A stretch of DNA of 64,000 nt from Oscillibacter sp. (GTDB taxonomy: Bacteria > Bacillota > Clostridia > Oscillospirales > Oscillospiraceae): contig JAFXQD010000090.1 of the NCBI GenBank assembly GCA_017527365.1, positions 1,568 through 65,567 of the forward strand. The letters are read 5' to 3'. Shown here in pieces: positions 2,241 through 19,157 of the stretch; within the stretch, counting starts at the first letter, position 1, and every line of letters starts with the position of its first letter. The translations under genes were made by a program, and so were the position numbers. The notes beneath the pieces were generated by a model. It did no database searches and had not been told where the DNA came from. It saw nothing but the letters and a program-made list of their open reading frames with translations.

Positions 2241-3319
2241 GGCGCCGCCGCCGTCAGGAAGCTCAACAGCGACACGAAGAGCAGTAAGGCGGCGCTGCCC
2301 GTCATGCCCAGAACCAAGCCGAACGCCCCGCCGAGGCCGTCTATCAGGCGGCGGAGCTCCGGCATTCCCGCGACGGACGCCAAAACCGCGACCGCCTTAT
2401 AAAGCAGGTACTGCGCCCCCAGCTCCAAGAACGGGTACGCGCAGGCGGCGACAACCGCCAGCATTCCGAACACGCCGAGGCTGTTCTTCAACATCCCCGC
2501 GCCCGCAAGCACGGATTCCGACACTTGCGCCAGAATCCCGCCCACGACGGGCACCGTATTCGTAACGGCGGTTCGCACGGCGCGGACGGCCATTCCGTCG
2601 GCGGCGCCGGCGAGTATCCGGCACACGGACAAGTAGACCGTAAAGAGCAGAACCGCGTTTGTCAAGAGAGCCGCAATGAATTTTTTAAGGCCGTCGGCGA
2701 GGGCTTCCAGAAAGTTCCCCGACAACGCGCAGGAAGCGGTTAGAAGCCCGATATACAGGTACGTTAAGGGCATGAGAAAGCCGTCCATGAGGGAAAGCAG
2801 GGTTTCGACAAGGAAAAAGGTCGTGACCTGCTGGAACGTGGCGGTGTTGACGGAGCCCGTCGCCGCGACCGCCGCCGCCATCGCGGGCAGGATTGCCTTG
2901 GAAAACTCGTCCAGCTCCCCGATTGTTTTCCAGCCCAAGCCAATCAACTGCTCAAGGCTCCCGGCGGTCAGCGCCGTGACCGACAGCGCCCCCGCCATCG
3001 ACAGGCAAAGGCTTGTCTGTTCGGCGTCGCCGCACCCGCTCCGGACGGCTCCGCAGAGTATCGCGGACAACAGCACCGCCGCCGCGCCTTTCGTCCGGCG
3101 CCGCACGACGCCCCCGACTTTCGCCCGGACGCCCTCCAGAATCCGCGCCACGCCCCCCGCAAAGCCGCTCGCGCCGTACTCCGCGCCGTCGAGGTACTCC
3201 CCGGCGGCCTCCGGAAGCGCGTCCGACAGCTCCCGCGCCGCCGCGCCCGGCTCCCACGCCGCGCCCGCCGCGCCCGTCAGGCACAGCGCCGCCGCCAAAA
3301 CGCAGATAATCCGCCCCAT
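2237..3319 (-). CDS. spoIIIAE: stage III sporulation protein AE
   Basis: 360 aa with a signal-peptide-like N-terminus (MGRIICVLAAALCLTGAAGA) followed by a polytopic membrane domain. Operon context is with spoIIIAC/AD. Confidence 0.75.
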   Translation of the reverse strand: MGRIICVLAAALCLTGAAGAAWEPGAAARELSDALPEAAGEYLDGAEYGASGFAGGVARILEGVRAKVGGVVRRRTKGAAAVLLSAILCGAVRSGCGDAEQTSLCLSMAGALSVTALTAGSLEQLIGLGWKTIGELDEFSKAILPAMAAAVAATGSVNTATFQQVTTFFLVETLLSLMDGFLMPLTYLYIGLLTASCALSGNFLEALADGLKKFIAALLTNAVLLFTVYLSVCRILAGAADGMAVRAVRTAVTNTVPVVGGILAQVSESVLAGAGMLKNSLGVFGMLAVVAACAYPFLELGAQYLLYKAVAVLASVAGMPELRRLIDGLGGAFGLVLGMTGSAALLLFVSLLSFLTAAAP

Positions 3320-3360
3320 ACGCCCCCCTTAACCATACGCCGCAAACTCTTGAACGCGCC

Positions 3361-3750
3361 TTACGCCATCAGCTTTAAGAGCATATCCATGACTTCCCGC
3401 AACAGCGGCAGGGCGGTCAGCAACGCGCAGAGCGTCCCGGCGCCCTCCACGACGCCCGCCAGCGCCGTTTCCCCCGCGTCGCGGCACAACGCGCCGCCCG
3501 TCCGCACAACCAGCGCGATTCCCGCAGTCTTGTACAGCGGCGCCAAGAGCGCGGGCGACAGCCCGCTTTTGTCGCCGAGTTCCCGGAAGAAGTCGAACAG
3601 CTCTGCGGCGGGACGCGCCAGAAACAGCAGAACCGTGACCGCGACGCCCAGCGTTAAAAGCAGTCCCATGACCTGACTGCCCTGCCGGACGACCAGAGCC
3701 AGCGCCGCGCCCGTCACGCACAACAGCGCCGCCCGCGTTACAAGCTCCAT
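3361..3750 (-). CDS. spoIIIAD: stage III sporulation protein AD
   Basis: 129-aa hydrophobic protein. The ..YKTAGIALVVRTGGALCRDAGETALAGVVEGAG.. region resembles the conserved SpoIIIAD core. Confidence 0.8.
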   Translation of the reverse strand: MELVTRAALLCVTGAALALVVRQGSQVMGLLLTLGVAVTVLLFLARPAAELFDFFRELGDKSGLSPALLAPLYKTAGIALVVRTGGALCRDAGETALAGVVEGAGTLCALLTALPLLREVMDMLLKLMA

Positions 3751-3756
3751 CGCCTT

Positions 3757-3951
3757 TCAGAAGCGGAACAGCGACTTGATTAAATCGAACAAGTCGCTGA
3801 TTCTCTGCACCAGAATCATCAGCACGACCACGAGCCCCGCCAGCGTCGTCATCATGGCTTGCTCCTCCCGTCCGGAGCGGACAAGGAGCTGGTTTAAGAC
3901 CGCCACCAGAATCCCGATTGCCGCGATTTTGAAAATAAAGTCCACGTCCAA
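3757..3951 (-). CDS. spoIIIAC: stage III sporulation protein AC
   Basis: The ORF track gives 3757..4014. The conserved SpoIIIAC sequence starts at (L->M)DVDFIFKIAAIGILVAVLNQLL.., encoded by a TTG at 3951 preceded by a G-rich SD-like run. That gives about 65 aa, the usual size. Confidence 0.75.
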   Translation of the reverse strand: MDVDFIFKIAAIGILVAVLNQLLVRSGREEQAMMTTLAGLVVVLMILVQRISDLFDLIKSLFRF

Positions 3952-4057
3952 GCCGCATCCCCCCCGCTTCCCTTTGCCATATCCTATGAGGACAGGCCGT
4001 CGCTTATGACGCAAAAAAAATGGGATTCCCGAAAGTCCGGGAACCCCGCTTTTTCGA

Positions 4058-4759
4058 TTATCCGTCGTTCTTCGCGGAGAGCGCTTCCAGCGCGGCTTTG
4101 GCGGCGGCCTGTTCCGCCTCCTTCTTGCTCCGCCCCGTGCCCTGTCCGAGGGGCTTCCCGTCCACGAGCGCCTCCATTTTGAACATTTTCGCGTGGTCGG
4201 GGCCCCGCTCGTCCAGCAGGGCGTAAGTCAGAACCCGCTCCGGGTCGCGCTGAATCAGCTCCTGCAACACGGTCTTGTAGTCCTGATTGCGTTGCTCCGG
4301 GCGCGCCTCGCGCACGTTGTTGAGCAGACAGCGGCGAATCAGCGCGGACGCCTCCCCCATGCCGCCGTCAAGGTACACCGCCGCGATGACGGCCTCCACG
4401 GCGTCGGCTAAAATCGACGGGCGGTTCCGTCCGCCGCCGCTGTCCTCGCCGCGCCCCAGACGCAAATGCTTTCCGAGTTCCAGTTCCAGCGCGATTCCGT
4501 GCAAGCTCTTTTCGCACACCAGCGCCGCCCGACTGCGCGTCAGTTCGCCTTCCGGCCAGTCCGGGCGCTCGCGGTAGAGAAACTCCGCCGTGACAAGGCC
4601 GAGAATCGAATCGCCTAAGAACTCCAAGCGCTCGTTGCTCCGCGCATGTTGGGCGCGGCGCTCGTTGGCGTAGGAGCTGTGGCAAAGAGCCTGTTCCAGC
4701 AGGGACGGGTCGCGGAATGTGTAATGCAGTTTCTGTTCCAGTTCGTTGATAGCGGACAT
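4058..4759 (-). CDS. rnc: ribonuclease III
   Basis: Contains the RNase III signature NERLEFLGDSIL and a C-terminal dsRBD (..GQGTGRSKKEAEQAAAKAAL). Confidence 0.95.
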   Translation of the reverse strand: MSAINELEQKLHYTFRDPSLLEQALCHSSYANERRAQHARSNERLEFLGDSILGLVTAEFLYRERPDWPEGELTRSRAALVCEKSLHGIALELELGKHLRLGRGEDSGGGRNRPSILADAVEAVIAAVYLDGGMGEASALIRRCLLNNVREARPEQRNQDYKTVLQELIQRDPERVLTYALLDERGPDHAKMFKMEALVDGKPLGQGTGRSKKEAEQAAAKAALEALSAKNDG

Positions 4760-4812
4760 TTCCTCTGAACCTCCTTCGCGTCCGGGAAAATAGAGTTTGG
4801 CGGCGCGGCGGT

Positions 4813-5058
4813 TTATTTCAGGCGTTTGGCGAGAAGGCGCACGGCGTCGCCCACGGTTTTCAATCCGGCGAGTTCCTCTTCCGGGACTTCCTCAATCTCG
4901 AACCGCTCTTCCATCGCCATCGCCAGCTCCACCAAATCGACGGAATTGGCGCCCAAATCGTCCTCAAACGAGGTTTCCATGGTCACGCTCTCCGGATTCA
5001 TCACGAACTCCTCCGCGACAAGCGCCTGCATAATCTTAAAAATTTCCTCTGCCGACAT
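4813..5058 (-). CDS. acpP: acyl carrier protein
   Basis: 81-aa acidic protein. DLGANSVDLVEL matches the phosphopantetheine attachment motif (D-S-L/V-D). It sits between plsX and rnc, as in Bacillus. Confidence 0.9.
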   Translation of the reverse strand: MSAEEIFKIMQALVAEEFVMNPESVTMETSFEDDLGANSVDLVELAMAMEERFEIEEVPEEELAGLKTVGDAVRLLAKRLK

Positions 5059-12648: not shown

Positions 12649-13698
12649 ATGGTCGTGACGGCGGGCATACTGGTTGCCGCGGCGGCTATCCGCCTGTTGG
12701 TTATCCCGAAATTCACCATTGTTCCGAGCGGTTTCCAGTTCCTGCTTGAACAGTGCGTGCGCGGAGTGGATTCTTTCGGCGCCGCGCTTGTCAAGTTGCG
12801 GCGTTCGTTATGCGCGGCGGCGGTCGGATTCGTGCGCGGGCTGTGGGGCGCGTTGCGCGCCGTCGGCGGCTTCTGCGGGCGGCACGCGAAAGAGCTTATC
12901 GCGTGGGGTTCGGTCATCGGCGTTTTGCTCCTTCTGTGCCTGATTGTGCCCGGCGCGCCGGAGCATGAGGAAATCACCGTCGCCATGCGCGACGCCGTCC
13001 TGCACGAGCACAACCAAATCAGCCTGTTCGGGTGGCGGAGCGTCAACCCCGCCCTTATCGCGGCTATGGCCGTAAGCGGCGCCCTGCTGTTCGGGGCGCT
13101 GTTAATCCGCGTCTTTGTGCTTCCGAAATTCTCCCTTGTTCCGGGACGCTTCCAGCTTGTCTTGGAAACTGTCGTCAACCTGTTGGACGGCCTCGCCGGG
13201 GTCGCGGACGGCAAAAGCGTCAAAATCCCCTTTATCGGGGCTTACGTGTTCGCGGCGGGCGTCTATATCTTCACGGGGACGCTTTTCGAGCTAATCGGCG
13301 TCCAAGCCGTCACGACGCACGGGGCTTCCGTCACGCTTCCCGCGCCTTTAAGCGATGTCAACGCCGCCATCTGCATGGGTTGCCTGAGCTATCTTGTGAT
13401 ACTGTGCGGCGGGGCGGTCAAGCGCGGCGGGAAAGGCATTGCCGCCGCCCTGAAGGAGTTCTCCCTGCCAATCTCCATGAGCTTCCGACTGTTCGGCGCC
13501 CTGTTGAGCGGCCTGCTGGTGACGGATTTGGTCTACCACTACGCCGCCCTCTGCTATGGAATCCCGGTTGTCGTGGGCGTGATATTCACCCTGCTTCACG
13601 CGATTGTCCAGACTTACGTGCTCACGATGCTTGTGGGGATGTACTACAAGGAAGTGACGGAGGAGCCGGAAAAGAAGCCCGACGAGTTTTCCGTCTGA
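12649..13698 (+). CDS. atpB: F0F1 ATP synthase subunit a with a long N-terminal extension
   Basis: C-terminal part has the a-subunit signature (..LPISMSFRLFGALLSG.. with the essential Arg, and ..HAIVQTYVLTML). The start is taken at the ATG at 12649, with GGAGGGGGG about 8 nt upstream. Start is uncertain. Confidence 0.85.
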   Translation: MVVTAGILVAAAAIRLLVIPKFTIVPSGFQFLLEQCVRGVDSFGAALVKLRRSLCAAAVGFVRGLWGALRAVGGFCGRHAKELIAWGSVIGVLLLLCLIVPGAPEHEEITVAMRDAVLHEHNQISLFGWRSVNPALIAAMAVSGALLFGALLIRVFVLPKFSLVPGRFQLVLETVVNLLDGLAGVADGKSVKIPFIGAYVFAAGVYIFTGTLFELIGVQAVTTHGASVTLPAPLSDVNAAICMGCLSYLVILCGGAVKRGGKGIAAALKEFSLPISMSFRLFGALLSGLLVTDLVYHYAALCYGIPVVVGVIFTLLHAIVQTYVLTMLVGMYYKEVTEEPEKKPDEFSV

Positions 13699-13781: not shown

Positions 13782-14144
13782 ATGAAACAAAGAAAAGTGT
13801 GCGCTATGCTTCTTCTGACCTTCCTGCTGTCGGCTCTGCTGGCGGTGCCCGCGCTCGCCGCGCCCGTCGCCGCGCCGGATATGGCGCCCGTCGCCGCCGC
13901 CGCGCAGGGCGAGGGGCAGATTGTCTCCGGCAAGGCTGTCGCCTGCGGAATCGCCATCGGGCTTGCCGCCGCCGGCGGCGCCGTCGCCATGGGCGTCGCC
14001 GTCGCCAAGGCCAACGGAAGCATTGCGCGCCAGCCGGAAGCCGTCGGCGACATCCGCTCCACGCTCATGCTGGGGCTTGTGTTCATTGAGACGGCTATCA
14101 TTTACGCCCTGCTGGTCGTCATCCTGATTATCTTTGTCCTGTAA
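13782..14144 (+). CDS. atpE: F0F1 ATP synthase subunit c with a signal-peptide-like N-terminal extension
   Basis: C-terminal hairpin ..GIAIGLAAAGGAVAMGVAVAKANGSIARQPEA..LMLGLVFIETAIIYALLV (RQPE loop, carboxylate Glu). The ATG at 13782 has GGGGGT upstream. The rest of the 370-aa ORF-track entry is not coding. Confidence 0.85.
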   Translation: MKQRKVCAMLLLTFLLSALLAVPALAAPVAAPDMAPVAAAAQGEGQIVSGKAVACGIAIGLAAAGGAVAMGVAVAKANGSIARQPEAVGDIRSTLMLGLVFIETAIIYALLVVILIIFVL

Positions 14145-14159: not shown

Positions 14160-14651
14160 ATGCCTCTGAATATTGACTTTCAGCAGATTCTGTTGCACCT
14201 GTTCAATTTCGCCATTCTCGCGGCGGGGCTCTACTTCCTGCTTTACAAGCCCGTCAAGCAGTTCATGGCAAAGCGCATGAGCGTTTACGGCGAGCGGGAG
14301 GCGGAGGCCGCCAAGAACGAGAGCGAAGCCGAGCAACTGCGGCGGAAATACGAGCAGATGATTTTGGACGCCGACGAGGAAATACAGCGCCAGAAGGCGG
14401 AAGCCAGCGAGGAATTGGAAGCCGAAAAGCGCCTGCAACTCGACCAAGCGCGGGCGGAGGCGCGGAAGATTATCGGCACGGCGAGCAAAACGGCGGAAAT
14501 CCGCAGTCAGAAGGTTTTGCAGGACGCGAGCGAGGAAGTGCGGACAATGGCCGTGGAGATGGTGGAAAAGCTGGTCATGGAGTCGGGCGGGGAGGCCTTG
14601 GACGCCTTCCTGAACGCGGCGGAAAGGAAACAGGCGGCGGAGAATGGCTGA
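14160..14651 (+). CDS. atpF: F0F1 ATP synthase subunit b
   Basis: Single N-terminal TM helix followed by a long charged coiled coil. Position is between the c and alpha genes. Confidence 0.85.
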
Positions 14652-16433
14652 GAGAAAACATCGCGTTGTCCTGCAAAGCGACACGCCCCCCACGGAAGAA
14701 CAGAAACGGCGTCTCGGAGCCTTTGTCCGCCGGACTTATGATTTTGATGTCCCCATTGAGTGGGAGGAGACGCCGGAGCTTGTCGGCGGCTTCCGTCTGC
14801 ACGTTGACCGCGACCTGTACGACTGGAGCCTTGAGGGGCGCCTGCGGCAGTTCCGGGATAAAATGGCGAAACTTCCCGCCGGACCCAAGAACATTATGCC
14901 CCTGTTGCGCGATACCATGGAGAAGTTTTCGCCGGACGTGTTGCGCGAGGAGCGCGGCGAGGTCTCGTCGGTGGGCGACGGAATCGCCCGCGTGAAGGGT
15001 CTGCCCAACGCCGCATACGGCGAAGTGCTCGAATTTTCCAACGGCGTCCGGGGCATGGTTCAGGACTTGCGGGAGGATTCCATCGGCTGCGTGCTGTTCC
15101 ACGACGACGGGAGCGTGAAAGAAGGCAGTACGGCGCGTTGCACGGGCAATACGGCGGGAATGCCCGTGGGCATCCAGTTTTTGGGGCGCGTCGTGGACGC
15201 GCTCGGAACGCCCATTGACGGCAAGGGCGCGATTAAGTTCGACGGCTACCGCCCCATCGAGATTCCCGCGCCGGGCATTCTGGAGCGCCAGCCCGTGGAC
15301 AAGCCCCTTGAAACGGGTATTTTGTGCATTGACTCCATGTTTCCTATCGGGCGCGGACAGCGGGAATTGATAATCGGCGACCGCCAGACGGGCAAAACCG
15401 CCCTTGCAATCGACACGATTCTGAACCAGAAAAACGAAAAAGTCATTTGCATTTACGTCGCAATCGGGCAGAAATCCGGCTCCGTGGCGCAGTTGGCGGC
15501 GAGCCTCGAAAAGCAGGGCGCCATGGACTACACGATAATCATCAACGCCCCCGCCAGCGCCCCCGCCGCAGAACAGTATATCGCCCCTTACGCGGGTTGC
15601 GCCCTCGGCGAGCACTTCATGTATATGGGGCGCGACGTGCTGATTATCTACGACGACCTGAGCAAACACGCAATCGCCTACCGCGCCTTAAGCCTGCTCT
15701 TGGAACGCTCCCCCGGACGCGAAGCGTACCCCGGCGACGTGTTCTATCTGCACTCCCGCCTCTTGGAACGCTCCGCGCATTTGTGCGACGAGCTCGGCGG
15801 CGGGAGCCTGACGGCGTTGCCGATTATCGAGACGCAGGCGGGCGACGTGTCCGCTTATATCCCGACCAACGTCATTTCCATCACGGACGGGCAAATCTAC
15901 CTTGAAAGCAACCTGTTCTTCTCCGGACAGCGTCCAGCGGTGAACGTGGGCTTGTCGGTGTCCCGCGTGGGCGGCGACGCCCAGACCAAGGCTATGAAAC
16001 GCGCTTCCGGCTCTTTGCGCCTCGACTTGGCGCAGTACCGCGAAATGGAGGTCTTTACCCAGTTCTCCAGCGACCTTGACGACGCCACCAAACGGCAGTT
16101 GATTTACGGAAGCGGGCTCATGCTCCTGTTGCGCCAGAATCAGTATTCGCCGATGAGCCGCCACCGTCAAGTGGCTTTGCTTGTCGCGGCGCTGTCCCAC
16201 ACCATGGTTGACATTCCGCAGAACCGCCTCAACGAGTACCGCGAGGAGCTCTTGGCGGCGATTGAGCGCAACAACCGCAACGAGTGCCAGCGCATTGACC
16301 GCAACGGCAAGTTGGACGACGAGGACAGGGAGCGCATACTGAACACGGCGAAAAAGTTCGCCGAAGATTATTTGCGCCGCCTGCGCCGCAAGGAAGAGGA
16401 ACAGCCGCAGGGCAAACAGGGCGGTGAGGCTTA

Positions 16434-16434
<1 letters not shown>
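14644..16434 (+). CDS. atpA: F0F1 ATP synthase subunit alpha fused to an N-terminal delta (OSCP) C-terminal-domain-like segment
   Basis: Residues about 83-580 are canonical alpha ([17 protein letters not shown] Walker A, ..[28 protein letters not shown]..). Residues 1-75 (..[27 protein letters not shown]) resemble the C-terminal end of subunit delta. The start overlaps the atpF stop by 8 nt. Confidence 0.9.
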
Positions 16435-18730
<2,296 letters not shown>

Positions 18731-18731
18731 T

Positions 18732-19157
18732 ATGGCGGAAGAGTTTCGCGTTCATATTGTGGCGTCCGACCGCGATTTTTTCGACGGGATGTGCACGTCT
18801 ATCCGTCTGCCCACCGTGGACGGAGCCATAGGCATTATGGCGCGCCACATCAACCTTGTCACGGCGATAGTGCCGGGGGAGATGTGGTATCGTCTGCCGG
18901 ACGGGACGGAACGCACGGCGGCGCTTAGTCACGGGTTGCTCCGCGTGGAGAATAACGACATCCTGATTTTAGTGGACAGCGCGGAACATCCGGAGGAAAT
19001 CGACATGGCGCGGGCGAAACGCGCCGCCGAACGCGCCAAGGAAATCATGTTGCAGAGCAAGAGCTGGCAGGAATACTTGCAGACGCAAGCGAGCCTGTCA
19101 AGGGCGATGAACCGCCTGAAAGCGGCGCGCCGCGCCGATTCGCGGGAATTTGACTGA
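18732..19157 (+). CDS. atpC: F0F1 ATP synthase subunit epsilon
   Basis: 142 aa with a beta-sandwich followed by a helical hairpin. The ATG is 2 nt after the atpD stop. It is the last gene of the operon. Confidence 0.85.
   Translation: MAEEFRVHIVASDRDFFDGMCTSIRLPTVDGAIGIMARHINLVTAIVPGEMWYRLPDGTERTAALSHGLLRVENNDILILVDSAEHPEEIDMARAKRAAERAKEIMLQSKSWQEYLQTQASLSRAMNRLKAARRADSREFD

Follow-up and report, generated by a model that had tools for sequence, protein, structure and literature searches.

A delta C-terminal domain fused to subunit alpha in the sole F-type ATP synthase operon of an Oscillibacter genome

The window analysed here, a 64,000-nucleotide stretch of an Oscillibacter sp. draft assembly, contains the sole F-type ATP synthase operon of its genome, with the gene order a-c-b-[dCTD::alpha]-gamma-beta-epsilon. 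In canonical enzymes the N-terminal domain of subunit delta (delta-NTD) occupies the alpha3beta3 three-fold axis and keeps delta on F1, and in solved F1Fo structures the C-terminal domain is the docking module for the C-termini of the b dimer (b2). In the window enzyme the N-terminal cap appears to be gone, and the b2-binding C-domain and alpha would be translated as one chain. We conclude, with a rough probability of 0.78, that the operon encodes a natural deltaDeltaN-alpha subunit, in which a peptide bond would take over the delta-NTD/alpha contact as the anchor of the stator and, since each enzyme contains three alpha chains, a b2 docking site would be found on all three. The delta C-domain::alpha design is already known in print (2025-2026) and is widespread, and the window provides a further case; what is new here is the placement of this lineage in an alpha+beta tree and the order of events that it suggests.

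The fused gene (P0001) occupies positions 14644..16434 of the plus strand, between b and gamma, and encodes 596 aa in one uninterrupted frame without an internal stop; the observation in the initial annotation that no stop codon separates delta from alpha is therefore upheld. Residues 5-74 (14656..14865, +) align with positions 102-172 of the 172 in the OSCP profile PF00213 at 29.8 bits (E 7.6e-7; curated cut-off 22.3 bits), and the delta segment searched on its own reaches 34.5 bits, which agrees with the earlier view of residues ~1-75 as resembling the delta C-terminus. The linker (residues 75-83, AKLPAGPKN) and the N-terminal helix of alpha (residues 84-94 in the AF2 model) follow at 14866..14925 (+). 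The alpha core at 14926..16434 (+) comprises the beta-barrel, nucleotide-binding domain and C-terminal domain, with PF02874 at residues 103-168, PF00006 at 225-440 and PF00306 at 447-572, in that order. The F-type alpha model TIGR00962 (atpA equivalog) covers residues 82-576 from model position 5 onwards (722 bits, cut-off 484), and Met74 aligns with Met1 of mycobacterial alpha in a sequence alignment. Thus, the end of delta adjoins the start of alpha with almost no gap; alpha had been placed some 8 residues past delta, and while it does follow directly, that distance was slightly overstated. In the AF2 model of the fused chain, a monomer of moderate quality (mean pLDDT 70.6) to which the packing of the delta domain in the complex is out of reach, the delta segment adopts a strand-helix-three strands-helix fold with a pLDDT of about 75-83.

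The order atpB-atpE-atpF, 596-aa ORF, atpG-atpD-atpC, initially read from the sequence, is recovered from Pfam matches, with all genes on the plus strand. These are atpB (Fo subunit a, PF00119; 12649..13698), atpE (subunit c preprotein, PF00137; 13782..14144), atpF (subunit b, PF00430 at residues 10-138; 14160..14651), atpG (gamma, PF00231, E 6e-85; 16434..17336), atpD (beta, PF00006 and PF02874; 17333..18730) and atpC (epsilon with a C-terminal helical domain, PF02823 and PF00401; 18732..19157). The single b gene of the operon encodes a protein of normal length (163 aa). The start of atpE at ATG 13782 has a Shine-Dalgarno (SD) energy of -9.8 kcal/mol, and TTG 17333 is the likely start of atpD (-14.6 kcal/mol). 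The start of the fused ORF at 14644 overlaps the stop of atpF by 8 nt, as noticed before; of 73 related loci, 67 retain such an overlap, which spans 4-26 nt and is most often 8 nt.

The fused C-domain is the single OSCP match in the 2.07-Mb, 96.4%-complete genome. Nothing precedes it in the fused ORF, and a search for the delta N-terminal domain (OSCP positions 1-100) gave no match genome-wide, even at E <= 10. In genus-mates (95-97% complete) the fused match likewise stands alone. The genome thus probably has no separate delta gene, although a draft assembly in 107 contigs cannot fully exclude one, and both the lack of a stand-alone atpH and the missing N-terminal domain, first proposed from the window, hold at the level of the genome. 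For annotation, this means that an operon without atpH need not be incomplete. The genome also carries two rnfD loci and a V/A-type ATPase locus; alongside the latter, the F-type enzyme may work in either direction.

Comparison with the PDB points to an engineered counterpart. The best sequence match of residues 1-130 is 9jc1_I (query 9-130 to chain 7-132, E 8e-12), the best fold matches of the fused chain are 9jc1_I/K/J (572-574 aligned columns), and the junction stretch aligns to the GSGG linker and alpha N-terminus of 9jc1_I. This entry is the engineered Bacillus PS3 deltaDeltaN-alpha fused FoF1 (Ueno et al., Nat Commun 2025;16:5410, PMC12229609), in which the fused delta C-domain contacts b2 canonically. 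As in the PS3 design, the delta C-domain alone (PS3 residues 105-178) is placed N-terminally on alpha, the delta-NTD and a free delta are absent, and the two proteins are collinear. In contrast, the window protein is natural and has a native linker of 9 residues where the design has GSGG; it comes from a strictly anaerobic member of the Oscillospiraceae, whose c subunit is synthesised with an extension resembling a signal peptide. Natural delta-alpha fusions are named in the Discussion of the same paper (Acidaminococcus fermentans, UniProt G4Q3K6 and A0A1I2C5T3; PMC12229609); going by their published description, these share with the window the gene architecture and the missing delta-NTD. Delta-alpha fusions of like architecture, again lacking the delta-NTD, also appear in the survey by Mulkidjanian, Kuchevskiy, and Dibrova (bioRxiv 10.64898/2026.10.01.756066); a term search of that preprint turned up neither Clostridia nor Oscillospiraceae. 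Mycobacteria, too, join parts of the peripheral stalk covalently, but there delta is attached to b rather than alpha and is retained at full length.

The branching pattern of the alpha+beta tree (FastTree, LG+gamma, SH-like supports, midpoint rooting, no named outgroup) provides clues on how the fusion arose. Full-length delta::alpha fusions and the window clade form one group, to which the family's canonical operons are sister. This suggests that delta was fused before it lost its N-terminal domain, which became dispensable once the fusion existed. Within one order we find canonical operons, full delta::alpha, dCTD::alpha, tandem dCTD::alpha, b::dCTD::alpha and a free dCTD minigene, a graded series of stalk designs that offers material for studying stalk evolution. 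In the b::dCTD::alpha relatives (737-787 aa) subunit b is also part of the fusion, so that one b arm is forced per alpha, giving three. A related clade encodes the delta C-domain as a free minigene of 72-91 aa; thus, the covalent link is not required for an enzyme devoid of the delta-NTD. In the window lineage, the earlier proposal that such a link may replace the delta-NTD/alpha contact is supported by the sole fused C-domain, the 9JC1 match and the tree.

With the symmetry-breaking cap absent, F1 itself would set no one-stalk limit. The initial annotation had pointed to a stoichiometry problem, alpha3 versus delta1, which is real; no conserved start for unfused alpha was found. It did not raise the reading that an enzyme with three docking sites might bind more than one stalk. 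To our knowledge, the known multi-stalk F-type enzymes are one native, from Chloroflexus, and one engineered. The PS3 fusion reaches up to three stalks and a-subunits, with an H+/ATP of 5.8, and carries two stalks on average with a/b expression not retuned; its authors judged natural multi-stalk enzymes likely (Ueno et al. 2025, PMC12229609). The native F1Fo of Chloroflexus aurantiacus (alpha3beta3 gamma epsilon delta2 a2 b4 c10) has a shortened delta-N, and its stalk and a-subunit each occur in two copies (Zhang et al., PNAS 2025, PMC12002316). Like the window enzyme, it is a native F-type enzyme with a reduced delta-N, and more than one stalk is seen there. However, its delta is free and has a four-helix N-domain that dimerises atop F1, whereas the window protein has no N-domain and carries the C-domain on alpha. 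Taken with the three b arms forced in the b::dCTD::alpha relatives, these cases lead us to lean towards more than one bound b2-a stalk over exactly one, a reading that we nevertheless hold at less than even odds.

In an alternative scenario, to which we give a lower probability, the enzyme would have exactly one stalk: one of the three delta C-domains would hold b2-a, the other two would be idle, and the ion/ATP ratio would be ordinary, the limit coming from the supply of a and b, the geometry of the c-ring or packing in the membrane. In the full-length delta::alpha fusions that group with the window clade, three N-domains cannot share the single axial site, so surplus delta parts and idle fused copies are evidently tolerated, and an enzyme with three docking sites need not bind as many stalks. 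Moreover, the operon has one a and one b gene, like those of single-stalk enzymes, and most cryo-EM particles of the engineered enzyme had fewer than three stalks (PMC12229609). Set against this scenario are the average of two stalks in that same enzyme, the native two-stalk Chloroflexus enzyme and the b::dCTD::alpha relatives.

The multi-stalk reading can be extended into a fuller scenario, more tentative than either stalk number by itself. The native enzyme of this lineage would normally carry 2-3 b2-a stalks and serve as a low-voltage ATP synthase for Rnf-driven energy conservation; fusion would have come first and cap loss second in one family, with the cap lost independently at least two more times in relatives of the same order. 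What ATP costs in ions is set by how many peripheral stalks and a-subunits the enzyme has. With additional stalks the ion/ATP ratio would rise, which would allow ATP synthesis at the low ion-motive force that an Rnf-dependent anaerobe is expected to have. If the multi-stalk reading is true, 2-3 times as many ions would be spent per ATP as in a single-stalk enzyme with an equal c-ring. The lineage offers counterparts of the engineered design, itself slower than its wild type (PMC12229609), that arose naturally and have a long evolution behind them, in abundant gut and rumen anaerobes. Since some carriers are cultured, the natural use of multi-stalk F-ATPases in fermenters is directly testable.

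A mixed pool of alpha subunits would also restore a canonical single stalk, with about one fused and two plain copies per enzyme, the plain form arising from an internal start or from proteolysis of the linker. Residues 75-83 are indeed the most variable stretch of the fusions, and the exact alignment of Met74 to canonical alpha Met1 suggests that this residue is probably a relic initiator. Nevertheless, we regard a mixed pool as improbable. Plain alpha starting from Met74 had been suggested at the outset, but the comparative evidence speaks against it: of 81 loci, 59 have Leu in the Met74 column and only 17 a start-like codon, and none (0/81) pairs a start codon there with an SD energy of -8 kcal/mol or below. 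At the window site the SD energy is -4.1 kcal/mol, within the in-gene background, and median values are -3.8 kcal/mol at the junction, compared with -10.9 for true starts and -3.0 within genes. No conserved start was found at any other junction position among the loci compared. An internal start at Met74 or nearby is thus considered unlikely on comparative grounds, as the codon is not conserved and the SD stays at background.

It is very unlikely that the operon encodes an N-ATPase, a laterally transferred Na+ pump with a long b subunit ending in a delta C-domain. Some resemblance exists: residues 2-72 match the C-terminal end of the subunit b model TIGR03321 (173-243/246, E 4.6e-6), the window b matches its N-terminal part, and the delta-NTD is missing in both systems. 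The N-ATPase subunit b (AtpF_N, TIGR03321) similarly joins stalk parts and keeps only the C-terminal part of delta (PMC2881411), but there delta is joined to b and in the window to alpha. Furthermore, N-ATPase operons have the order atpDCQRBEFAG, with AtpQ and AtpR (Dibrova et al. 2010, PMC2881411), as opposed to a-c-b-alpha-gamma-beta-epsilon in the window. Alpha scores 602.7 bits on TIGR03324 (alternate-F1F0 alpha), under the cut-off of 750.5, and passes the atpA model, and the c subunit, with sequences read by eye, lacks the full Na+ ligand set. We therefore reject N-ATPase membership on operon order and the TIGR03324 score.

Conservation of the deltaDeltaN-alpha frame was assessed by a survey of related Clostridia, as the initial annotation had proposed. 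A search with one strict junction pattern recovered this fused frame from 132 species-level genomes, isolate genomes among them; cultured carriers include Dysosmobacter segnis, Flintibacter faecis, Lawsonibacter, Anaeromassilibacillus senegalensis and Hominicoprocola fusiformis. A phylum-wide search with the junction alignment reads through stops and returns mostly canonical delta-stop-alpha pairs, and only stop-free frames were counted. The fusion is intact in 77 complete ORFs of other species (median length 584 aa). The delta/alpha junction is gapless in alignments of 22 and of 66 fusions, and nine residues of the delta domain (P16, G49, Y59, D60, W61, S62, G65, R66 and Q69) are invariant in the latter. 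The delta domain shows a dN/dS of 0.03-0.22, similar to that of the alpha core, which indicates that the fusion is under purifying selection. Although the assembly behind the window is a draft in 107 contigs, the recurrence, intact ORFs, purifying selection and invariant residues effectively refute an assembly artefact or decaying gene, in which an error or recent mutation would have removed the stop between a functionless delta remnant and atpA.

Two further subunits of the operon have extended N-termini. The 364-aa atpB frame, with PF00119 at residues 155-348, opens at GTG 12604, where the SD energy is +0.7 kcal/mol versus -13.6 at ATG 12649, the likely start. Its N-terminus contains an additional ~95 aa repeating TM1 and a 'PKFxxVPGRFQxxLE' module (local score 92, z 11.3 against shuffled sequences). 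We considered this module as a conserved fusion partner that might supply a further helix for binding b. Although genuine, the repeat occurs only in the window and the L034-L041 subclade and is absent in the remainder of the clade; limited to close relatives, it does not account for the fusion design. A minus-strand ORF lies upstream of the a gene. The atpE product has a signal-peptide-like N-terminus (MKQRKV..LAVPALAA) and an Ala/Pro-rich linker ahead of the c hairpin, whose ion site reads ..LVFIETAIIYAL.., and this N-terminal extension is present in 45/45 of the main-clade c ORFs listed.

The forward strand of the window carries a complete F-type ATP synthase operon, as revealed by ORF and Pfam analysis: subunit a (12649..13698, with the frame open from 12604), subunit c (13782..14144), subunit b (14160..14651), a fused ORF of 596 aa (14644..16434), gamma (16434..17336), beta (17333..18730) and epsilon (18732..19157). 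The ORF calls and Pfam thus confirm the order atpB-atpE-atpF, 596-aa ORF, atpG-atpD-atpC; subunit b is of normal size, and every ORF within the operon is assigned. The atpF stop and the ATG of the fused ORF share an 8-nt overlap, and translation shows no internal stop, the frame being open throughout the delta segment and alpha. Residues 5-74 match the OSCP/delta profile (PF00213) at positions 102-172 of 172 only (29.8 bits against a cut-off of 22.3; 34.5 bits for the segment alone). Three alpha domains follow, the NCBIfam atpA model covering residues 82-576 (722 bits, cut-off 484). The sequence statements of the initial annotation, namely the ORF, the 8-nt overlap, the delta C-terminal-domain (dCTD)-like segment and the absence of a stop between this segment and alpha, are all borne out. 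Furthermore, Met74 aligns to Met1 of mycobacterial alpha, and so delta's last helix joins alpha's first residues almost directly.

We surveyed related Clostridia and found that 132 species-level genomes (one per species, single junction pattern) encode the same fusion. Most of the carriers are MAGs of Oscillibacter or Oscillospiraceae recovered from gut and rumen, but there are also the isolates Dysosmobacter segnis BX15, Flintibacter faecis BX5, Lawsonibacter sp., Anaeromassilibacillus senegalensis An867 and Hominicoprocola fusiformis. Among 81 loci, 77 are complete ORFs with an intact frame (median 584 aa; 3 outliers). The 66 aligned full-length fusions show no gap at the junction, and all have the same nine delta-domain residues (P16, G49, Y59, D60, W61, S62, G65, R66 and Q69). 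Pairwise dN/dS is 0.03-0.22 for the delta domain and 0.015-0.11 for the alpha core. The fusion is a conserved gene under selection; the breadth of species, isolates included, the intact ORFs and the delta-domain dN/dS rule out a sequencing or assembly error. In 67 of 73 loci the b stop still overlaps the fused start, an arrangement indicative of translational coupling, as had been suggested. A six-frame search (E <= 10) of the window's own assembly (2.07 Mb, 107 contigs, 96.4% complete) returned one OSCP match, the fused ORF, in line with the proposed lack of a stand-alone atpH. The sole delta-derived sequence is the b2-docking C-domain, encoded as part of every alpha chain and under selection.

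In a PDB sequence search, residues 1-130 score best against 9JC1 chain I, which is titled 'ATP synthase delta subunit, ATP synthase subunit alpha'. Query 9-130 aligns collinearly with chain 7-132 (E 8e-12), and the linker holds the one gap, of 3 residues. This entry is an engineered Bacillus PS3 enzyme in which delta residues 2-104 were deleted and residues 105-178 fused to alpha (Ueno et al., Nat Commun 2025, PMC12229609). In an AlphaFold2 model built on the 66-fusion alignment (mean pLDDT 70.6), the delta domain forms strand-helix-three strands-helix (pLDDT about 75-83), after which come a short linker, the N-terminal helix of alpha and the barrel. The top Foldseek matches are three chains of 9JC1 (572-574 aligned columns, at most 535 for ordinary alpha chains). 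In sequence and fold, the fused protein resembles the engineered chain, with the dCTD directly ahead of alpha. Natural fusions were also named by Ueno et al. (Acidaminococcus fermentans and two UniProt entries; Discussion, PMC12229609), and a 2026 preprint by Mulkidjanian, Kuchevskiy and Dibrova describes delta-alpha and b-delta fusions with a shortened delta. The kind being already in print, the window's fusion is not a new one; it is a further real, conserved, sole-copy example.

A survey of 301 genomes of the Oscillospirales, mostly at least 90% complete and with each architecture checked by Pfam, disclosed six stalk designs: canonical delta; full delta::alpha (670-714 aa); dCTD::alpha (579-640 aa); tandem dCTD-dCTD::alpha; b::dCTD::alpha (737-787 aa, with a free b gene retained); and free dCTD minigenes, some with a single stop before atpA. 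Canonical operons and operons lacking the delta N-terminal domain (delta-NTD) coexist in several genomes (e.g., G040). Alpha and beta were concatenated (924 columns, 71 taxa) for a FastTree phylogeny, with midpoint rooting as an assumption. In this tree all delta-to-alpha fused forms of the window's lineage constitute one clade (support 1.0). Within it the dCTD::alpha forms are monophyletic (0.88), full-length fusions lying beside or below them, and the sister group comprises six canonical operons of the Oscillospiraceae (0.996). The b::dCTD::alpha and free-dCTD clades are separate (1.0 each), and a 55-taxon tree agrees. Under the assumed root, the simplest reading of this branching, with moderate support, is that fusion came first and delta-NTD loss second in the window's lineage, and that at least two further independent losses probably took place in the order. 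This evolutionary reading is new here.

Several loci illustrate these designs. In a family-mate (L136, G227:C17, 3523..5565), two delta C-domains, both matching OSCP, stand in tandem before alpha in a 681-aa frame. Five loci (L124-L128) have a full-length delta in frame with alpha (670-678 aa; the OSCP match starts at about profile position 10-24 and ends at 172), posing a stoichiometry puzzle of their own, with three complete delta copies per enzyme. Minigenes of 72-91 aa occupy the atpF-atpA gap in seven others (L129-L135), in some cases one stop codon away from atpA; these form their own alpha+beta clade, with one fused member, L022, nested inside. At L033 (G046:C15, reverse complement 2660..4978), b (174-aa frame) and a 598-aa dCTD::alpha share a reading frame with one TAG between them, which the OSCP match (positions 19-168) crosses; this may reflect a b-delta-alpha gene that was split or joined not long ago, or else an error in sequencing. 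In the canonical operon of a genus-mate (L030, G020:C7, 3000..4572), alpha lies in two overlapping frames (143 and 440 aa), a frameshift or assembly error.

What remains of interest is the native stalk number and ion/ATP ratio, and carriers in culture exist. The engineered PS3 enzyme has up to three b2 stalks, about two on average, each with its own a-subunit, and an H+/ATP of 5.8; its authors concluded that delta's N-domain is what restricts stalks to one, and considered a multi-stalk structure 'highly likely' in natural fusions (PMC12229609). Judging from solved structures and this enzyme, the anchoring role of the delta-NTD would pass to a peptide bond, each alpha would offer one docking site, and stalk number would no longer be limited by F1. 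We put the probability that the native enzyme bears more than one stalk at roughly 40%. Exactly one stalk is only slightly less likely: the sister-group full-length delta::alpha fusions tolerate surplus fused parts, another clade functions with a free delta C-domain, and the multi-stalk engineered enzyme is slower than wild type (PMC12229609). However, the latter became multi-stalk without retuned expression (PMC12229609), and native Chloroflexus aurantiacus F1Fo, with a reduced delta-N, has two stalks and two a-subunits (PMC12002316). Moreover, the b::dCTD::alpha relatives, which keep a free b gene, carry b and dCTD on alpha, thus forcing one b arm per alpha.

The initial annotation had also put forward Met74 as a start for unfused alpha. 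At its alignment column, 59 of the 81 loci carry CTG, CTC or CTT; ATG stands there in 15 loci and TTG in 2. None of the 81 pairs a start codon with a Shine-Dalgarno duplex at or below -8 kcal/mol, which speaks against this proposal. A mixed population, with plain alpha made beside fused alpha, is improbable, since the median duplex energy at this column is -3.8 kcal/mol versus -3.0 kcal/mol for the in-gene background (-10.9 kcal/mol at annotated fused starts; -4.1 kcal/mol at the window's own site) and no other junction position has a conserved start in the 81 loci compared. Met74 looks like a relic initiator of a formerly separate atpA.

Elsewhere in the window's own genome, the I and A subunits of a V/A-type ATPase lie at the end of contig C93, and two rnfD-containing loci occur (contigs of the V/A-type and rnfD loci together: C93, C30, C84). 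The window's subunit c is encoded as a preprotein: an N-terminus resembling a signal peptide, with basic residues, a hydrophobic stretch and an AxA-type site such as VPALAA, leads through an Ala/Thr/acidic linker of 20-40 aa to the hairpin. This layout recurs upstream of the fusion in 45/45 main-clade c ORFs listed (L034-L081, out of L034-L113); in the canonical operons L028-L030 the c frame is shorter, at 76-112 aa. The ion site, ..LVFIETAIIYAL.., hardly varies among the c ORFs listed. It has Met and Ala at what we take to be the Gln32 and Thr67 positions of Na+-binding c (Ilyobacter numbering), and the Na+ ligand set of c would therefore be incomplete. Subunit a has an extra N-terminal extension of ~95 aa (12649..12950) that duplicates the first transmembrane helix and the 'PKFxxVPGRFQxxLE' motif (local score 92, z 11.3 versus shuffles). 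As a guess only, it may be a second b-contact helix; its open frame is conserved in the close relatives L034-L041 and absent elsewhere in the clade.
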